A DNA stretch of 64,000 nucleotides from a bacterium. GTDB lineage: Bacteria > Myxococcota_A > Bradymonadia > REDH01. Location of the stretch: assembly GCA_030427825.1 (NCBI GenBank), contig JAUICO010000001.1:30293-94292 (forward strand). Reading direction: 5' to 3'. Made by a program: the position numbers and the translations under genes. A model generated the notes under the pieces. It made no database searches, was not told where the DNA came from, and was given only the letters and a program-made list of their open reading frames with translations. Positions within the stretch are counted from its first letter, which is position 1. Each line of letters begins with the position of its first letter. Shown here one piece after another: positions 4,358 through 21,022 of the stretch.

Positions 4358-5287
4358 CTATTCGAGCCCCCGGAAGCGTTTTGCCAGTCGCTGCGAGACC
4401 AGGTTTGTCAGGAAGGTCATCACAAAGAGCGCGAAGCCGACCGCGAATATGGTCCGGTACTCGATGGTTCCGGTGGGCGTGTCTCCCATGCTGACCTGCA
4501 CGATGTAGGTCGTCATGGTCATCACAGACTCACGCGGGTCGATGGTCAGGTTGGCCTGCTGACCTGCAGCGATGACCACGATCATGGTCTCGCCGATCGC
4601 CCGGGAGAAGCCGAGGATTACCGCCGCGGCGATCCCGGAGAAGGCAGAGGGCAGGGTCACCCGCAGTATGGTCGAGGTCTTCGAAGCGCCGAGCCCGTAT
4701 GCGGCCTCACGCACCTTGCCGGGCACGGCGTGCAGGGCGTCTTCACTGACGGACGCAATCGTCGGCAGAATCATGATGCCCATCACGATGCCCGGTGCGA
4801 GGGCGTTGAACCCGCCCAGGCCAGGAACAAACTTCTGCAGAATCGGCGTGACCGTGATCAGCGCGAAATAGCCGTACACAACCGTGGGTACACCGGCGAG
4901 AATCTCAATCGCCGGCTTCAGAATCGAGCGCGCTCGGGTGCTCGCAAACTCGCTGAGGTACACGGCCGCCAGAATGCCCAGCGGAAGCGCCACACACATC
5001 GCTACGAGAGACACCAACAGGGTGCCTCCCACGAGGGGCCAGATGCCGAAGTGCGCGTCCGCAAACAGCGGCGTCCACTGGGTGTCAAACAGGAAGTCCC
5101 TGATGGGGACTTCACCGAAGAACTGTATGGTCTGGCTGACCAGAACATACAGGATGCCGACGGTAGTGAAGATCGAGACCAGCGCGCAGATGCGCAGCGA
5201 GTTCTCGATCACGGTCTCGCCGAGGCGTGGCTTACGAGAGAGGTCTACGACCGTCCCGGGGGCGGGTGTCTGAGCTGTATCGCTCAT
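4358..5287 (-). CDS. pstC: phosphate ABC transporter permease PstC
   Basis: 309-aa polytopic permease. Only 1 nt separates it from the pstA start. Lies downstream of pstS. Confidence 0.85.
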
Positions 5288-5354
5288 CTTGTTTGCAGCT
5301 CTCGAGCAGGGGAATCGAAACCGGGAGTATCAGCGGTCGCGACGGGGGCGACTC

Positions 5355-6353
5355 TCAGTTGCCGCGCAGCAGATCTTCAGCCGACACACCGACGCGCGAT
5401 CCACCGCCGCCGAACACCGAACCCGTAGTGCCCGCGTCGAAGCGCTGAGTGGCCAGGTCATAGGTGGAGTCCGGGAGCGGAATGTAGCCGACTTCGCGGA
5501 CGAGTGAACGGCCCTCACGCAGGTAGAAGTGGACGAAGTCCTTGATCTCCTGTCGCTCGGCGGCGGCCTTGTTGATGTAGATGAAGATCGGTCGTGAGAG
5601 CGGCTGGTAGGTTGAGTTCGCCACGGTCTCAGGGCTCGGTTCGATGGGGCCGGCGCCGTTCGTCGCGTCTCCGTCTTCGATGGGGATCACGCGAAGGCGG
5701 TCGCGGTTGGCCTCATAGTAGGCGTAGCCGAAGAAGCCGAGCGCGTTCTCGTCTGTCGCCACACCCTGCACGATGACGTTGTCATCTTCGCTTGAGGTGA
5801 AGTCGCCGCGGCTTGCGTGCTCTTCGCCGACGATGGCCTTTGTGAAGTAGTCGTAGGTTCCGGAGTCGACGCCGGGACCAAAGAGGTTCAGCGGCTGTGA
5901 AGGGAATGTGGGGCGAATCTGGTTCCAGTTCGTGATGGTGCGCTGAGCAGCGGGCTCCCACATGCGCTTCAGCTCGTCGACGGTCAGGTAGTCGACGAAG
6001 GAGTTGCTCGCGTGGACGACGACAGCCAGGCCATCATAGGCGACAGGAACCTCGATGAACTCGATACCCGCCTCGGCACATGCCGAGACCTCTGTCGGCT
6101 TGATCGGGCGCGACGCGCCGGTGATGTCGACCTCGGCGGCGCAGAATTTCTGCATGCCACCGCCGGTGCCGGATACTCCGATCGTGACCCGCGCCACCGA
6201 CGAGCCGAACTCTTCGGCGACCGCTTCGGTGATGGGGAAGACGGTGCTGGAGCCGTCAATGCTGATGGTCTTGACGTCCTTGCCTTTGCACCCAACGGCG
6301 AAGCCGACGAGGGCGATAGCGGTGATGATGATGGTGAGAATTCGCTTATTCAT
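5355..6353 (-). CDS. pstS: phosphate-binding protein PstS (lipoprotein)
   Basis: Signal peptide with lipobox (LVGFAVGC). Periplasmic phosphate-binding fold motifs (SGTGGG, DGSST). First gene of the pstSCAB-phoU block. Confidence 0.85.
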
Positions 6354-15846: not shown

Positions 15847-16162
15847 GGTCGCCTCTCCACAGTGGGATGATCGGTGGCGTGACCGCAGGTCTGGATGTTT
15901 GTGCGCCTCGGAAGGGGCGACGCGTGAACACTGGAATCCACAGTGATTCTGCGCCGCTGAACCCCCGATTGAGGACGTGCTCGCTGTGTGACGAGTTGTG
16001 TTGTTACTCCGCCACAGCGCCGCTGATGGTTGTGCTAGCGGGGCGACGATCTCGGGTCAACGGAACACCGGCAGCTATCCGCGCGCGACGGTCTCCGGTT
16101 GCCCCTCGCCGGTCTTTCGATATACGGCGACCTTCGTCGAACCACTCCATGGTTCGCTGGGA

Positions 16163-17347
16163 GTGCCCGTGTCCGAAGATAAGACAGATCTCTCGACCTC
16201 GACCCTGCTGACCGCCGGGCATCGTGTGGAAAGCACACAGCACCCTGTAGGGCTGCCCGTGCACCAGACCACCACCTTTCGAATCAACGAAGCGTTGAAT
16301 GCAGCGATGGCGAGGGGCGACTACCGGTCGCAGCACCTGTACACGCGCATGAGCAATCCGACGACGCGCGCGCTCGAAGAGCGACTTGCGCAGCTTCACG
16401 CCGGCGAGGACGCGGTTGTCTTTGCGAGCGGCATGGGCGCGATTTCGGCAGCGCTTGTGGGAGTGACAGCGCCGGGTGACACGGTGCTTGCGTCGACTGA
16501 GCTGTATGGTGTGACCGACGGGTTTCTCGACGCCTACCTTGCGCAGATGGGCCGCAGGATTGTGCGTTGCGACATGAGTGACAGCCGCGCGCTGGCTGAT
16601 GCGTTGGTGGACTTCAGCCCGACATGGCTGCTCGCGGAGACGGTGTCGAACCCTCTGGTACGTGTGCTGGACATCGAAGGCATTGCAGCAGCAGCGCATG
16701 CTACCGGGTCCAGACTGGCTGTCGACAACACCTTCGCAAACCCGGTCGCCTGCCGTCCCCTGACCCTCGGTGCGGACCTCGTCATCGAGAGCCTCAGCAA
16801 GTCGATCGCAGGCCACTCCGCGGTGCATGGTGGCGCTGTCATCGGCGATGCGTCGCTCACCGCCGAAGTGTGGAAGGCGATGATTCATTTCGGCAGCTGC
16901 CTCGATCCCGGCGCGGCCGCCTTGATCTGGCGCGGCATGCAGACGCTGGCCCTGCGAACCCGCGCAATGTCTGACAACGCGGCGGCGATCGCGGACTTCC
17001 TCTACACGCACAACGAGGTACAGAAGGTGTACTTCACCGCAGCCGAATCGGGCCGACCGCTGGCGCCGTTGCTTGCCTGCGGCGGGATGCTGTCTTTCGT
17101 TGTTGCGGGCGGTGACGAACGCGCGCTGCGGCTGCTCGACTCTCTGTCCCTGATTGTACCGGCGTCTTCCCTTGGTGGCGTCGAGTCACTCGCCAGCCTG
17201 CCCTTCAACACCTCGCATAGAAACCCCGAGGCGCGCGAGCGCTGTGGCCTGCTCCCCGGGACCGTTCGCCTCAGCGTTGGCTGTGAGGACGTCGGTGACC
17301 TGTGCCGAGATCTGGCGCAGGCCCTGAAGCTCAGCGCTGAACTGTAA
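16163..17347 (+). CDS. Cys/Met-metabolism PLP-dependent enzyme (cystathionine gamma-synthase/beta-lyase/O-acylhomoserine sulfhydrylase family)
   Basis: PLP-lysine motif SLSKSIAGHS and family-typical HQTTTF, NPTTRALEERLA, VVFASGMGAI. The N-terminus in the ORF track looks over-extended; GTG at 16163 or 16169 is likely. Confidence 0.8.
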   Translation: MPVSEDKTDLSTSTLLTAGHRVESTQHPVGLPVHQTTTFRINEALNAAMARGDYRSQHLYTRMSNPTTRALEERLAQLHAGEDAVVFASGMGAISAALVGVTAPGDTVLASTELYGVTDGFLDAYLAQMGRRIVRCDMSDSRALADALVDFSPTWLLAETVSNPLVRVLDIEGIAAAAHATGSRLAVDNTFANPVACRPLTLGADLVIESLSKSIAGHSAVHGGAVIGDASLTAEVWKAMIHFGSCLDPGAAALIWRGMQTLALRTRAMSDNAAAIADFLYTHNEVQKVYFTAAESGRPLAPLLACGGMLSFVVAGGDERALRLLDSLSLIVPASSLGGVESLASLPFNTSHRNPEARERCGLLPGTVRLSVGCEDVGDLCRDLAQALKLSAEL

Positions 17348-18656
17348 CCTGTCGAATTGACCGGATAGCGATCGAGTCACCCGAGAGCCGCGTTGCTTCG
17401 CACACAAGCTCACTGAGTTGATCTTCGCTGAGCGGCTTGTCGATGGCAACGATGTCATACGCGATCTTGTAGCGATCGAAGTCGCGGTGCGCACTCATGA
17501 GGTTGCTTGCACCGGCTGCGTAGATCGCATCATCAAGGGCCTTCTTGGTGCCGCGTTCGGTGCTGTGAACCACCGAGATGACGTGGTCGAAGCTGCCGGC
17601 GTCAAAGCCGATGGTGTGTTTCGGCTCAAACACACAGTTTCTGAGTGTACCGTAGTTTGAGAGCAGGTTCGTCGTGCCGGCTACGTGACGTGCGATGCGT
17701 GGTTGCGCCTCGTGTGTCGCGGCGCCGATGTGTGGCGTGGCGAAGATGTTTGGATTCTCGGCGTAGGGGTTGACCCACGGGTCATCCGCGTTGCGCGGTT
17801 CCGACGGGAACACGTCCACCATTGCCTGGCGAATGTGACCTTCGTTTGCTGCGCGCAGCAGGTCTTCTGACGAGTGTATGTTCCCGCGTGCCAGGTTGAC
17901 GAAGATGCGAGGGCTGTCTTCGCGGTTCTCGGACATGCGTGCGAAGTCATCGTACGTGATGACGTTCAGGTTGCTTCGGTTCGCGTAGTCGAAGGCCGAC
18001 ACGTGCGCGGTGACGATGTCGGAGTCCGCGAAGAGGTCGCCAAGCGTCGGTGCAAAGGTCCACCCCAGGAGCTCTCCGACTTCTCGGGCTACCGGGCGAT
18101 TGTCGTAGAAGGCGACCTTCATGCCGAGCAGTTCAGCGGTGCGCGCGACCTGCTTACCGATATTGCCGAGCCCGAAGATCCCGAGGGTCTTCCCGGCGAT
18201 CTCGTAGCGCTGTGCCTTGGACTTCAGGAAGCTGTTGTCGTTGGTCTCGTCGACGGCATGGAACACGCGACGCGACATGCAGAGAATCTCGCCGAAAGCG
18301 AGCTCGACGACGGAACGAGCGTTAGAGACCGGGTCGTTCGTCACGAGTACGCCGTGCTTTGCGCAGGCCTCTTTGTCGACAGAGTCGTCGCCGATGCAGC
18401 ACAGCATCACCGCAGCAAGCTGGGGCGCTGCCTTCAGTACGCGCTCTGTGATCTGCACCCGCGAACGCTTGAAGATCAGGTCGTAGGGGTCCTTCTCAAG
18501 GATCCTGACCAGATCATCTGTGTTCGGCGTGCTGTCCGGACGTACGGGCTCGATGCCGATTCTTCGCAGATGGTCGTCGAGGGTCTTGTCGGGAGATTCG
18601 AGGATGAGCGCCCGCCGGAAAGGACCCGTGAGAACGCGTGGCTGGGTGGCTGGCAT
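17331..18656 (-). CDS. D-isomer-specific 2-hydroxyacid dehydrogenase, D-3-phosphoglycerate dehydrogenase (SerA)-like, with C-terminal regulatory domain
   Basis: NAD-binding GIFGLGNIGKQVA and catalytic-domain motifs (NLARG...HIGAAT). 441 aa with a C-terminal extension. Its 3' end overlaps the convergent PLP-enzyme gene by 17 nt. Confidence 0.75.
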   Translation of the reverse strand: MPATQPRVLTGPFRRALILESPDKTLDDHLRRIGIEPVRPDSTPNTDDLVRILEKDPYDLIFKRSRVQITERVLKAAPQLAAVMLCCIGDDSVDKEACAKHGVLVTNDPVSNARSVVELAFGEILCMSRRVFHAVDETNDNSFLKSKAQRYEIAGKTLGIFGLGNIGKQVARTAELLGMKVAFYDNRPVAREVGELLGWTFAPTLGDLFADSDIVTAHVSAFDYANRSNLNVITYDDFARMSENREDSPRIFVNLARGNIHSSEDLLRAANEGHIRQAMVDVFPSEPRNADDPWVNPYAENPNIFATPHIGAATHEAQPRIARHVAGTTNLLSNYGTLRNCVFEPKHTIGFDAGSFDHVISVVHSTERGTKKALDDAIYAAGASNLMSAHRDFDRYKIAYDIVAIDKPLSEDQLSELVCEATRLSGDSIAIRSIRQVTVQR

Positions 18657-18680
18657 CGGAACTCTCTCGCTGAAGTTGTT

Positions 18681-18833
18681 TTACTTTGCCTTTTCGAGTT
18701 CAGGCTTCACAAAGCGGTAGACCAGCTCTGTGACGACATCGACCTGAGTGCGGCCGGTGCGGTCGCAGTACTCCTTTAGCTTCAGGTGCGCTGCGGTGCT
18801 GATCCAGAGAGATTTTTTGCCTTCGTTGCTCAT
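18681..18833 (-). CDS. 50-aa ribbon-helix-helix-like small DNA-binding protein (not in ORF track)
   Basis: My own translation gives MSNEGKKSLWISTAAHLKLKEYCDRTGRTQVDVVTELVYRFVKPELEKAK. A beta-strand followed by two helices is the RHH pattern. Clear paralog of the N-terminal domain of the downstream-encoded 18888..19295 protein (shared pattern LWIS/VWVD, AH..LK, V....LV). Confidence 0.5.
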   Translation of the reverse strand: MSNEGKKSLWISTAAHLKLKEYCDRTGRTQVDVVTELVYRFVKPELEKAK

Positions 18834-18887
18834 GACAAACTCATGTTGTGTGCAGATTCCGTGGGTGTGCTGCGCGGGTCGTTGAAA

Positions 18888-19295
18888 TCAGACGAGCCAG
18901 ACGCCGCCGAGGAAGCGCACGGTTCCATCGTCTGCGGGAACCGACTCTTTGCGGGGACGACGCGCAGTCTGCTTTGCGGCCGGCCGCTTCTTCGCAGGTG
19001 CCTTGCTGACCTTCTTCGGCGCCTCTGCTTTTCGTGCGGTCGTCGTAGCTGCCTTTGGAGCCGCCGCTTTCGGTGCCTCCGCTTTCGGTGCAGCCGCCGG
19101 CTCTGCCGCCACAACCGGAGCGGGCGCGGGTGCGTCCTCACCACTGAGTCCTGCCGCCGGGTCGAGGCTGTCGATCTGGTTGAGAATCAGGTCGCTTGCG
19201 AAGGAGACCATGGACTGCTTCTTGACCTTGGCGAACGCCTTAAGAACTCCGTGTGCCTCTTCATCAACCCATACGGGCATCTTATCTTTGGCCAT
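18888..19295 (-). CDS. small putative nucleoid-associated protein: RHH-like N-domain plus histone-H1-like Ala/Lys/Pro-rich tail
   Basis: N-terminus MPVWVDEEAHGVLKAFAKVKKQSMVSFASDLILNQI. C-terminus AAPKAEAPKAAAPKAATTTARKAEAPKKVSKAPAKKRPAAKQTARRPRK, of the AlgP/Hc1/BpH1 histone-like tail type. Confidence 0.6.
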   Translation of the reverse strand: MAKDKMPVWVDEEAHGVLKAFAKVKKQSMVSFASDLILNQIDSLDPAAGLSGEDAPAPAPVVAAEPAAAPKAEAPKAAAPKAATTTARKAEAPKKVSKAPAKKRPAAKQTARRPRKESVPADDGTVRFLGGVWLV

Positions 19296-19402
19296 CGTTC
19301 ACCTCATACGTGCGCGCAGTTGCGGCGTGTTCTGCGATGTCGGCAACTCTATGTGCGTCGCCGCCCGCGGGGCGAAGCGCTTATGGGGTGATGCGCAGCC
19401 GG

Positions 19403-21022
19403 TCAAGCGGAGAGAATGGCTTTTGCGGCCACCCTGCCCGAAGCGATCACTGCCGCGATTCCGTGGCCCGTACGGGTGTTTGTGCCCGCCAGGTAGAGGC
19501 CCTTGACCGGCGATTTGGCGCCGGGCCGCTTCATGAACTGCGCGGCGGTACCCGCGAAGCCGTACGAGGTGCCATCGCTGGAGCGCACATAGCGCTGATG
19601 GGTCATGGGAGAGCAGGTCTCGCGGTAGACGATGTGATCCCGGACATCGGGCATCAAACGCTCCATCTGCGTGATGCACGCTTCCTGAAGGCGCTCTTTG
19701 ACCTCCTGGTAGCGGGGATTGTCCGAGTAGCTTCCGTCCTCGATCTCTGCCGGTGTGGTGCCCCACCAGGAGGCGTCCGGGGGCACGATCGTCATCAGCT
19801 CAAGGTTCGTGTGTCCGGCAGGCGCCAGTTCATCATTGTCCGGGTCCTTGAGTGAGGCGGTCGAGATGTAGAGCCAGGGCTTGTCGAGGGCCTCGTCGTC
19901 CCCTCGCTTTGTCGCCGCATAGCACTCGTCGAAGTCGTAGCTGTCGAAGAGCCAGACGTTGCTGTTGCCCCAGGGAAGCTCATCCGGAGAGATATCGAGC
20001 CCAAGGAAGACGACGCTCAGCGGCAGGGCCATCGAAAACCCGGCGACCTGGTCGCGGAATCGCCGCGGCACCTGCTCGGGCGCGAAGAGCTCGGTGACAG
20101 TGCGCTTGAGGTCCGCGTTCGAGATCACGGCGTCCGCGTGAATCGTGCGCTCCCCCAGATGCTTGTTAATAAAGCGCACACCGGTCACGCGGCCACCTTC
20201 GGTGATGATTCGCGTCACCTGTGAGCGCAGGCGCAACTGCCCGCCTGCGCGCTCGACTTCCTCGGCGAGCCGGTCGCTGATGCGCTGTCCACCGCCCTCC
20301 GGGTACCAACCACCGCTCTCGAAGTAGTGCGCAAGGACGCCCATGTGCAGAATCGTCGACACCTCACCGGGCGCGATCGCATAGATTCCGTTCTGCGCGG
20401 TGAGGATCGCCCGCAGCTGCTCGTTGTCCGTGCAGCTGTCGAGAAAATCACGAAGGGGGCCGAGCGCGTATCGCGGGAAGAGCAGACCTCGGCGCGCTCC
20501 TCGCAGCAGGGCGGCCGTCGAGCCGCTTTTCTGCGCCTTCATCAGGTCAGAGGTTTGCCGTGCGAGGCGCAGAAATCGCCGGATTCCCTTCGACTCCTCG
20601 GGAAACTGCGCGTGCAGGCGGCGTTCAAATTCGTCGATGTCCGCCGGAATCGTAAAGGTGAAGTCCGGGAAGTGAAGCACCTCGAGCTCCGAATCCATCT
20701 GGCGGAACACGATGTCCTCGACGCCGCTTTTCTCAAGTGCCCGCTGCACGCTGCCACCCGGGTGGCAGCCACCTACGTAGTGCAGCCCGACATCGAAAAC
20801 CCACTCCTTGCGGCGGAACACGGTCGCGTTGCCGCCGGGTATGTAATGCTGATCAAGGATCAGGACGCTCCTGCCTTCCCTGGCAAGGCCGGCTGCCGCG
20901 ACGAGGCCACCGAGACCTGCGCCGACGACGACCACGTCGTACCTGTCCTCCACTTCGCCGCGAACGCGATTCTGTCGTGTCTGTCGATCGGTCATGCCTG
21001 TCTTCCTCCTGCTCTCTGCCAA
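19403..21022 (-). CDS. FAD-dependent oxidoreductase, phytoene desaturase (CrtI)/amine-oxidase family
   Basis: Dinucleotide-binding motif YDVVVVGAGLGGLVAA then GGNA...VDVGLHYV. 539 aa. Confidence 0.7.
   Translation of the reverse strand: MAESRRKTGMTDRQTRQNRVRGEVEDRYDVVVVGAGLGGLVAAAGLAREGRSVLILDQHYIPGGNATVFRRKEWVFDVGLHYVGGCHPGGSVQRALEKSGVEDIVFRQMDSELEVLHFPDFTFTIPADIDEFERRLHAQFPEESKGIRRFLRLARQTSDLMKAQKSGSTAALLRGARRGLLFPRYALGPLRDFLDSCTDNEQLRAILTAQNGIYAIAPGEVSTILHMGVLAHYFESGGWYPEGGGQRISDRLAEEVERAGGQLRLRSQVTRIITEGGRVTGVRFINKHLGERTIHADAVISNADLKRTVTELFAPEQVPRRFRDQVAGFSMALPLSVVFLGLDISPDELPWGNSNVWLFDSYDFDECYAATKRGDDEALDKPWLYISTASLKDPDNDELAPAGHTNLELMTIVPPDASWWGTTPAEIEDGSYSDNPRYQEVKERLQEACITQMERLMPDVRDHIVYRETCSPMTHQRYVRSSDGTSYGFAGTAAQFMKRPGAKSPVKGLYLAGTNTRTGHGIAAVIASGRVAAKAILSA

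Follow-up and report, generated by a model that had tools for sequence, protein, structure and literature searches.

CdbA and CdbB of Myxococcus xanthus are ribbon-helix-helix (RHH) nucleoid-associated proteins that serve as receptors for cyclic di-GMP (PDB 6SBW; PMC7156744), and the two form mixed oligomers in a two-hybrid assay (PMC7156744). They provide the closest functional analogy to a pair of small genes that we have analyzed in a 64,000-nucleotide (nt) stretch of DNA, referred to below as the window. Three consecutive minus-strand genes of the window encode, in transcription order, a protein of 135 amino acids (aa), a 50-aa protein and a 441-aa dehydrogenase-like protein (Table 1). We consider it quite probable that the first two, called here the long and the short paralog, bind DNA as RHH proteins and belong to a small family for which there is no Pfam or NCBIfam model, and that a duplication in this family gave rise to a tailed and a tail-less form encoded upstream of a SerA-like gene. 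As far as seen, the family is confined to uncultured Myxococcota. Relatives of the pair retrieved from protein and genome collections are labelled L0xx when they are loci and P0xxx when they are proteins.

Like the window pair, CdbA and CdbB are two small neighbouring RHH paralogs of Myxococcota, one of them longer than the other. However, they are 67 and 86 aa long and about 50% identical; in the window the lengths are 50 and 135 aa, with an identity of about 24%. CdbA and CdbB also lack an Ala/Pro spacer and a GGVWLV terminus, and no linkage of theirs to serA is reported. When PDB sequences were searched with our family profiles A1, A3 and A4, no chains of 6SBW or 6SBX were retrieved at E ≤ 10. 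The comparison with CdbA/CdbB, which had been made in a preliminary description of this DNA, therefore holds for the fold and the tandem gene arrangement, which are all that the two systems have in common; on the missing profile match we rejected membership of the CdbA/CdbB family at the sequence level.

At that level the best match of both paralogs, over the strand, helix 1 and helix 2, is ParG of the TP228 plasmid partition system (PDB 1P94), whose segment VNFDEEKHTRFK aligns with VWVDEEAHGVLK of the long protein. ParG has a flexible N-terminal tail and a partner, ParF, whereas the long protein has a C-terminal extension and no ParA-type gene near it: no ParA or ParF gene was found beside the pair in the loci with gene calls, and no repeats were found upstream in the window. 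With the RHH repressors of the RepB-RCR_reg, Omega and Arc types the fold is shared, while all sequence matches stay below the curated thresholds. Antitoxins carry a disordered C-terminal partner-binding tail, and the RHH antitoxins (CopA-SO, TacA, ParD, CcdA and FitA) share with the long protein the overall design of an RHH domain followed by such a tail. Unlike them, the window pair has no toxin gene and is chromosomal, syntenic and single copy. The long tail is also built differently, consisting of an 8–10-residue terminal motif placed after a low-complexity spacer of 43–81 aa, unlike the toxin-wrapping region of the antitoxins.

The 153-nt open reading frame (ORF) of the short paralog, the coordinates and peptide of which had been given correctly in the preliminary description, differs from its counterpart in the nearest relative, L008, by 13 synonymous and no non-synonymous differences over 39 core codons. 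Against nine of ten more distant loci the ratio of non-synonymous to synonymous substitution rates (dN/dS) of this gene is 0.08–0.28, the tenth comparison being saturated. Because of this synonymous-only or low-dN/dS pattern, sequence comparison identifies the short ORF as a real protein under purifying selection rather than a reading frame that GC-rich DNA happens to contain. For the N-terminal domain of the long protein, dN/dS is 0.11–0.45.

Relatives of the short protein are 50–58 aa long and follow the consensus MSNDxKKPVWISxEAHxxLKEYCDRTGRTQVDVVSELLxRFxKPEL. They formed three clusters in a single-sequence search and 57 in a profile search (5.8 billion proteins). For the long protein, a word-indexed search of 5.8e9 proteins returned 10 homologs, and 41 representatives were found at E ≤ 1e-3 among 1.84 billion proteins. 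With roughly these numbers of short-type clusters and long-type representatives, this is a narrow new family within the very common RHH superfamily. The homolog searches and the dN/dS values agree in showing that both members of the pair are conserved as proteins in relatives, a check that the preliminary description had called for. Its expectation that the short gene would be overlooked by most annotation pipelines found no support, as a 50–58-aa short gene was called by gene callers in every related locus for which gene calls were returned, and a contig derived from NCBI already contributes the exact 50-aa product to the protein collection.

The short and long proteins of the window are only weakly similar in a direct comparison (24% identity over 33 aa in BLASTP, E 0.001 for a single comparison). 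Alignment with hhalign of a profile of seven short proteins and a profile of nine long N-termini, on the other hand, gave a probability of 98% and an E value of 2.8e-13 over 39 columns. An exhaustive search with the long profile also returned bridging hybrid proteins, namely P0097/P0115 (108 aa), P0101 (72 aa) and P0104 (63 aa). P0097, P0101 and P0104 carry the short-type signature EYC..GRTQ (KKPIWTTTEAHKRLKEYCKASGRTQ), then a spacer, and then a long-type terminus, GGVWVV or GGVWVI; the hybrid spacers range from about 17 to 65 aa. Taken together, the strong profile match and the bridging hybrids bear out the earlier proposal that the two proteins are paralogs.

The gene for P0097/P0115 stands alone between NUDIX-like and NTP-transferase genes, and neither a second paralog nor a dehydrogenase is found in its vicinity. 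It belongs to a 73%-GC lineage, has an eCIS_core gene near it, and was found in L021 and L032–L035 at about 5001–5327 or 6001–6327. P0101 is encoded at L036, and P0104 at L023 (218–409), where small overlapping genes are packed into an array on a contig of 551 bp. A metagenome scan for further hybrid genes gave only spurious matches, which fell within a protein of 527 aa from an organism of low GC content. Because the hybrids join a short-type domain to a long-type terminus, the sequences place the C-terminal motif before the duplication. In the simplest history the ancestor would have had an RHH domain, a disordered spacer and a C-terminal GGVW[LV][VI], a form that persists as a stand-alone gene in another lineage; this tailed gene would then have been duplicated, and the loss of the tail from one copy would have given the tailed long and the tail-less short paralogs.

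The AlphaFold2 (AF2) model of the short protein, obtained with a 52-sequence alignment, has a mean predicted local distance difference test score (pLDDT) of 89.8. It contains an extended segment at residues 1–12, in which the N-terminal strand is unpaired, and helices at residues 13–26 and 30–49. The structural neighbours of this model are solved RHH proteins, including the PutA RHH domain, Omega, TacA, ParD and Arc, among others, and as modelled the fold of the short protein is ribbon-helix-helix. For the long protein, the AF2 model from 10 sequences has a pLDDT of 53, rising to about 60 in the RHH part, where a strand (residues 8–10) and two helices (12–25 and 29–40) are predicted. Residues 41–126 have no secondary structure, with pLDDT below 50 in stretches, and a C-terminal hairpin is formed by strands 127–129 and 132–134. 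This model is consistent with an RHH domain, a spacer and a small terminal element, and is not strong evidence for them. The RHH-like fold that had been proposed for both products is thus predicted for the short one, from the model and its structural neighbours; the long one shows RHH-like secondary structure at low confidence.

Sequence matches point in the same direction as these models. The best PDB sequence match of both family profiles is the ParG RHH domain (1P94), with weak E values of 0.055 (long) and 0.14. Pfam gives sub-threshold scores to RepB-RCR_reg (15.6 bits, cutoff 21) and ParG (13 bits, cutoff 21.4), and NCBIfam to RepA (16 bits against a cutoff of 87), while the sole match in PHROGs is that of the short protein to an Arc-like repressor (E 6e-4). 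The G-x-T turn that typically stands ahead of helix 2 in RHH proteins is nearly invariant in the short family (G27-R28-T29); the long family has x-x-S28 at the turn and lacks the Gly. At the central ribbon position Arg replaces Trp in some members of the short family, a swap that would suit an exposed, DNA-facing position. A distant RHH-like ORF in a Nostoc metagenome-assembled genome (MAG; L020, 1128–1328) is 37% identical and contains YCEKTGRTQ, with no tailed paralog or dehydrogenase near it; it is probably a generic RHH protein with a common helix-turn signature.

The order long paralog, short paralog, 2-hydroxyacid dehydrogenase (440–455 aa) on one strand was found in all 13 non-redundant loci (the window, L001, L003, L004, L007, L008, L009, L011–L014, L018 and L024), and the genes that flank the trio vary between loci. 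The host MAGs of the related loci belong to Myxococcota (Myxococcales, Bradymonadia and "Deltaproteobacteria"). Gaps between the long and short genes range from 18 to 81 nt across loci (54 nt in the window) and those between the short gene and the dehydrogenase gene reach 116 nt (24 nt in the window); in L024 the stop codon of the short gene overlaps the start of the dehydrogenase gene by 4 nt. The trio probably forms one transcription unit.

In the six loci compared, the dehydrogenases are 57–91% identical to that of the window, which matches the Pfam families 2-Hacid_dh and 2-Hacid_dh_C. The NCBIfam model PRK11790 gives it 236 bits, below the cutoff of 404, with 385 of 410 model positions covered. 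Its best PDB matches are D-3-phosphoglycerate dehydrogenases (SerA; E about 1e-45), CtBP is found among its relatives, and the region aligned to Escherichia coli SerA reaches the C-terminal regulatory part of that enzyme. By these matches the third gene is SerA-like and closest to the E. coli type, although it does not reach the cutoff of the SerA equivalog. The enzyme appears to retain the catalytic Arg, Asp/Glu and His residues and looks ordinary in this respect.

In L011, L012 and L003, GC-rich hairpins followed by T-runs lie between the short gene and the dehydrogenase gene, for example CCGCCGCGCCCCGGCGGTTCTCGCGTTTTT in L011. They may represent a terminator or attenuator that differs by lineage. 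The same gap is only 23–24 nt in the window and L008.

The tail of the long protein had been described as a histone-H1-like extension of the kind found in AlgP, Hc1 and BpH1. The likeness lies in the APKA[EA] repeats of the window spacer and in its composition: of 79 aa, 26 are Ala, 13 Pro and 11 Lys, giving an isoelectric point (pI) of about 10. The (A/P)KA run does exist, but it is small, being encoded by 2.5 copies of a single 15-nt unit at 19060–19097. Moreover, unlike in AlgP, Hc1 and BpH1, the Lys-rich composition is not kept among homologs. Across 16 of these the spacer varies from 43 to 81 aa in length, from 1 to 11 in Lys content and from -15 to +8 in net charge; a Lys-rich spacer is limited to the window protein and one other lineage, several homologs are acidic and others are neutral. 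The closest long relative, which is 68% identical, has no APKA repeats. Because the charge and Lys content of the spacer vary in this way and the nearest relative lacks the repeats, the H1-like character is, as far as sequence composition can tell, a local state of a low-complexity spacer and not a trait of the family. A fused H1-like tail therefore does not stand as a notable feature of this protein, and we rejected it as a functional fusion on the grounds of the unconserved composition and the mere 2.5 repeat units.

What is conserved instead is a basic patch and then the extreme C-terminus, [DE]G[TS][VI][RK][YF]LGG[VIL]W[LF][VI]-COOH. Residues G130, G131, W133, L134 and V135 are invariant in alignments of 10 and 12 sequences, and a wider set includes the variants GGIWLV, GGLWLV, GGVWFI and GGVHLVR. 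This C-terminal motif, which is absent from the preliminary description, sets the long protein apart more than any other feature, and it is also present in the stand-alone hybrids P0097, P0101 and P0104. In sequence the terminal segment resembles the N-terminal ribbon strand (G-V-W-L-V and P-V-W-V, respectively). Sorting signals, the beta-clamp motif (QL[SD]LF) and ClpX/SspB-type tags were considered as identities of the motif, and none appears to match convincingly.

In one subgroup of long proteins (L007, 5001–5423; P0011, P0012, P0069, P0071 and P0080) an extra Lys/Gly-rich arm, MATKKTKTGKGKDGGKKPVWV..., is found N-terminal to the ribbon strand. This arm recalls the flexible N-terminal tail of ParG.

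The 135-aa product starts with MAKDKMPVWV. The preliminary description had recognized this protein but quoted it from Met6; homologs that begin with MADKKPVWV or MSEKKPVWV favour the first ATG, which is the start used in Table 1.

Table 1. Positions in the window of the three genes, the parts of the long paralog and the putative promoter.
Feature	Position	Strand	Basis
Long paralog, 135 aa: RHH-like domain, disordered Ala/Pro spacer and conserved C-terminal motif	18888..19295	minus	ORF; homologs; alignments
N-terminal RHH-like domain of the long paralog, aa 1-44, KMPVWVDEEAHGVLK...	19164..19295	minus	AF2; profile comparison; dN/dS
Ala/Pro-rich variable spacer of the long paralog, aa 45-123	18927..19163	minus	AF2 without secondary structure; homolog composition
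Conserved C-terminal motif of the long paralog, DDGTVRFLGGVWLV-COOH, aa 124-135, with a basic patch before it	18891..18926	minus	alignments
Short paralog, 50 aa, bare RHH domain, MSNEGKKSLWIS...	18681..18833	minus	ORF
E. coli-type D-3-phosphoglycerate dehydrogenase-like gene, 441 aa, third of the trio	17331..18656	minus	Pfam, NCBIfam and PDB matches
Putative sigma-70-type promoter: TTGACC (19406-19401), 17 nt, TAAGCG (19383-19378)	19378..19406	minus	

Upstream of the trio, all 13 non-redundant loci have TTGAC[CG] (TTGTCG in one case) 64–117 nt before the ATG of the long gene, and in most of them a TA-initial hexamer follows 16–18 nt further on. The TTGACC/TAAGCG pair of the window is a putative promoter. 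When k-mers of the 13 upstream regions were compared with shuffles, only the -35-like CTTGAC was enriched, with marginal significance. A stricter scan for the sigma-70 consensus found no promoter at the trio, a terminator scan found terminators at chance level only, and Rfam found no credible leader or riboswitch at 18500–19500.

By analogy with described RHH proteins, we infer DNA binding, oligomerization, a role for the C-terminal motif and a regulatory target for this pair. Each product would dimerize through its N-terminal strand (KKPVW[VI]), and the resulting two-stranded ribbon would enter the major groove of DNA, as in Arc, CopG, ParG and CdbA; homo- or hetero-oligomers of the short and long proteins would be possible. 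The long Ala/Pro stretch may act as a flexible spacer, its Lys-richness in the window reflecting lineage-specific drift, and could present the C-terminal motif as a tethered docking element for a partner or for an RHH ribbon. Candidate partners of the motif are the RHH ribbon, whether in cis or in trans, the dehydrogenase encoded next to the pair and an unlinked cellular component. Because a stand-alone hybrid gene carries the motif, the partner would not be exclusively the dehydrogenase. The role of the pair is most likely transcriptional control, either of its own operon or of a global kind similar to that of nucleoid-associated proteins (NAPs). The fixed position beside the SerA-like gene points to a local role, and the lack of a conserved operator and the existence of a stand-alone relative point slightly to a non-local one. 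In this form the analysis is a tidy improvement of the annotation that holds no surprise, and it corrects the attractive but misleading reading of an H1 tail. In the literature we found nothing on an RHH protein together with a phosphoglycerate dehydrogenase, nor on an RHH domain with a disordered tail as a NAP.

Several observations weigh against this interpretation. No curated RHH model of Pfam or NCBIfam matched above threshold, confidence in the AF2 model of the long protein is low (10 sequences, pLDDT 53), and the RHH domain of that protein is not basic (pI 6.5). In the window, a search of the 200 nt upstream found no operator-like direct or inverted repeats, and the k-mer test found no conserved operator-like repeat across the 13 upstream regions, so that a sequence-specific autoregulator finds no support. 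In the loci with hairpins and T-runs, co-transcription with the dehydrogenase gene may be partial.

It is conceivable, if unlikely, that the pair represents a divergent nucleoid system of the CdbA/CdbB type, in which abundant RHH proteins bind the chromosome globally and the Lys tail adds H1-like compaction. The tandem RHH paralogs in one Myxococcota operon parallel cdbA-cdbB (PMC7156744), and the missing operator and the stand-alone hybrid relative, which has no obvious local target, would both fit such a role. The -35-like TTGAC[CG] may mark a housekeeping-type promoter in the 13 loci, with statistics that are marginal. However, the failure of three family profiles to find CdbA and the different architecture of the window pair, with its spacer and terminal motif, speak against kinship. 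As most homologs do not share the Lys-rich composition, and the spacers of several are acidic, H1-like compaction cannot be the function of the family.

According to another reading, which we regard as rather unlikely, the GGVWLV strand mimics the KPVWV strand of the ribbon and docks on an RHH ribbon. Docking in cis would lead to autoinhibition, and docking in trans would cross-link dimers, including those of the tail-less paralog. The two segments are alike in the long proteins, as noted above, and also in the hybrids (PIWT and GVWVV), yet the resemblance extends over 3–4 residues only. The long AF2 model has both a strand at residues 8–10 and a C-terminal hairpin, and in the model of the tail-less short protein the N-terminal strand is left unpaired; the first of these models has a pLDDT of about 53, which limits what it can say here. 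The motif also accompanies the RHH domain whatever the gene neighbourhood.

Strand mimicry is one of two ways in which GGVWLV on a flexible spacer could be a new bacterial docking motif, gating or cross-linking the ribbons; in the other, it would recruit the SerA-like dehydrogenase to DNA in a manner resembling CtBP. We think it improbable that the motif is a docking motif of either sort. If true, either route would define a kind of chromatin or regulatory protein of Myxococcota that has not been described before, and a peptide that docks would offer a handle on how a DNA-binding module is linked to a dehydrogenase or to an RHH ribbon in uncultured myxobacteria.

Eukaryotic CtBP is a homolog of 2-hydroxyacid dehydrogenases, and DNA-binding proteins recruit it by means of short peptide motifs. 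Were the long protein to recruit the SerA-like dehydrogenase through its C-terminal motif in a comparable way, DNA binding or transcription would follow the state of a metabolite or of NAD(H), and the dehydrogenase would be a trigger enzyme. The strict co-occurrence of the pair and this subfamily of dehydrogenases, seen in 13 of 13 loci with unrelated flanks, and the start/stop overlap in L024 agree with this possibility. So do the presence of CtBP among the relatives of the dehydrogenase and the extension of the E. coli SerA alignment into the C-terminal regulatory part, and a spacer with a terminal motif would be typical of tethered docking peptides. But the stand-alone hybrids carry the motif with no dehydrogenase nearby, which implies that the motif predates the linkage to the dehydrogenase, and the enzyme appears, from its residues, to be catalytically ordinary. 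We therefore regard such recruitment as quite improbable.

An RHH antitoxin-like module or a ParG-like partition module of a mobile element is a far less probable explanation still, for while the top structural neighbours include the antitoxin domains CopA-SO, TacA, ParD and VapB and ParG is the best sequence match, no toxin, ParA/ParF or mobile-element gene adjoins the pair in the loci with gene calls, and the pair sits on the chromosome in a position whose synteny extends over diverged genomes. PADLOC gave no defence match at the pair and viral contigs contained no relatives of it; together with the lack of toxin or ParA neighbours, this led us to reject a toxin-antitoxin, defence or phage origin.

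Some neighbours of the trio are shared by few loci. In the window a 449-aa ORF on the plus strand (15998–17347) converges on the SerA-like gene, the 3' ends overlapping by 17 nt. Its counterpart in L008, the only other locus that has this neighbour, is a pyridoxal phosphate-dependent enzyme of Cys/Met metabolism (PF01053). Upstream of the trio, at 19403–21022 on the minus strand, lies a gene for a CrtI-family FAD oxidoreductase (TIGR02734, 179 bits, below the cutoff of 238). It adjoins the trio in the window and L008 only, and its stop codon falls inside the putative -35 hexamer. In three loci that otherwise differ, a convergent gene just downstream of the trio encodes a protein of about 200–223 aa with a LeuA_dimer domain only (PF08502); it is on the minus strand in all three (L001, 6645–7253; L009, 6643–7248; L007, 8853–9524). 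At the equivalent position L024 has an unannotated 201-aa gene.

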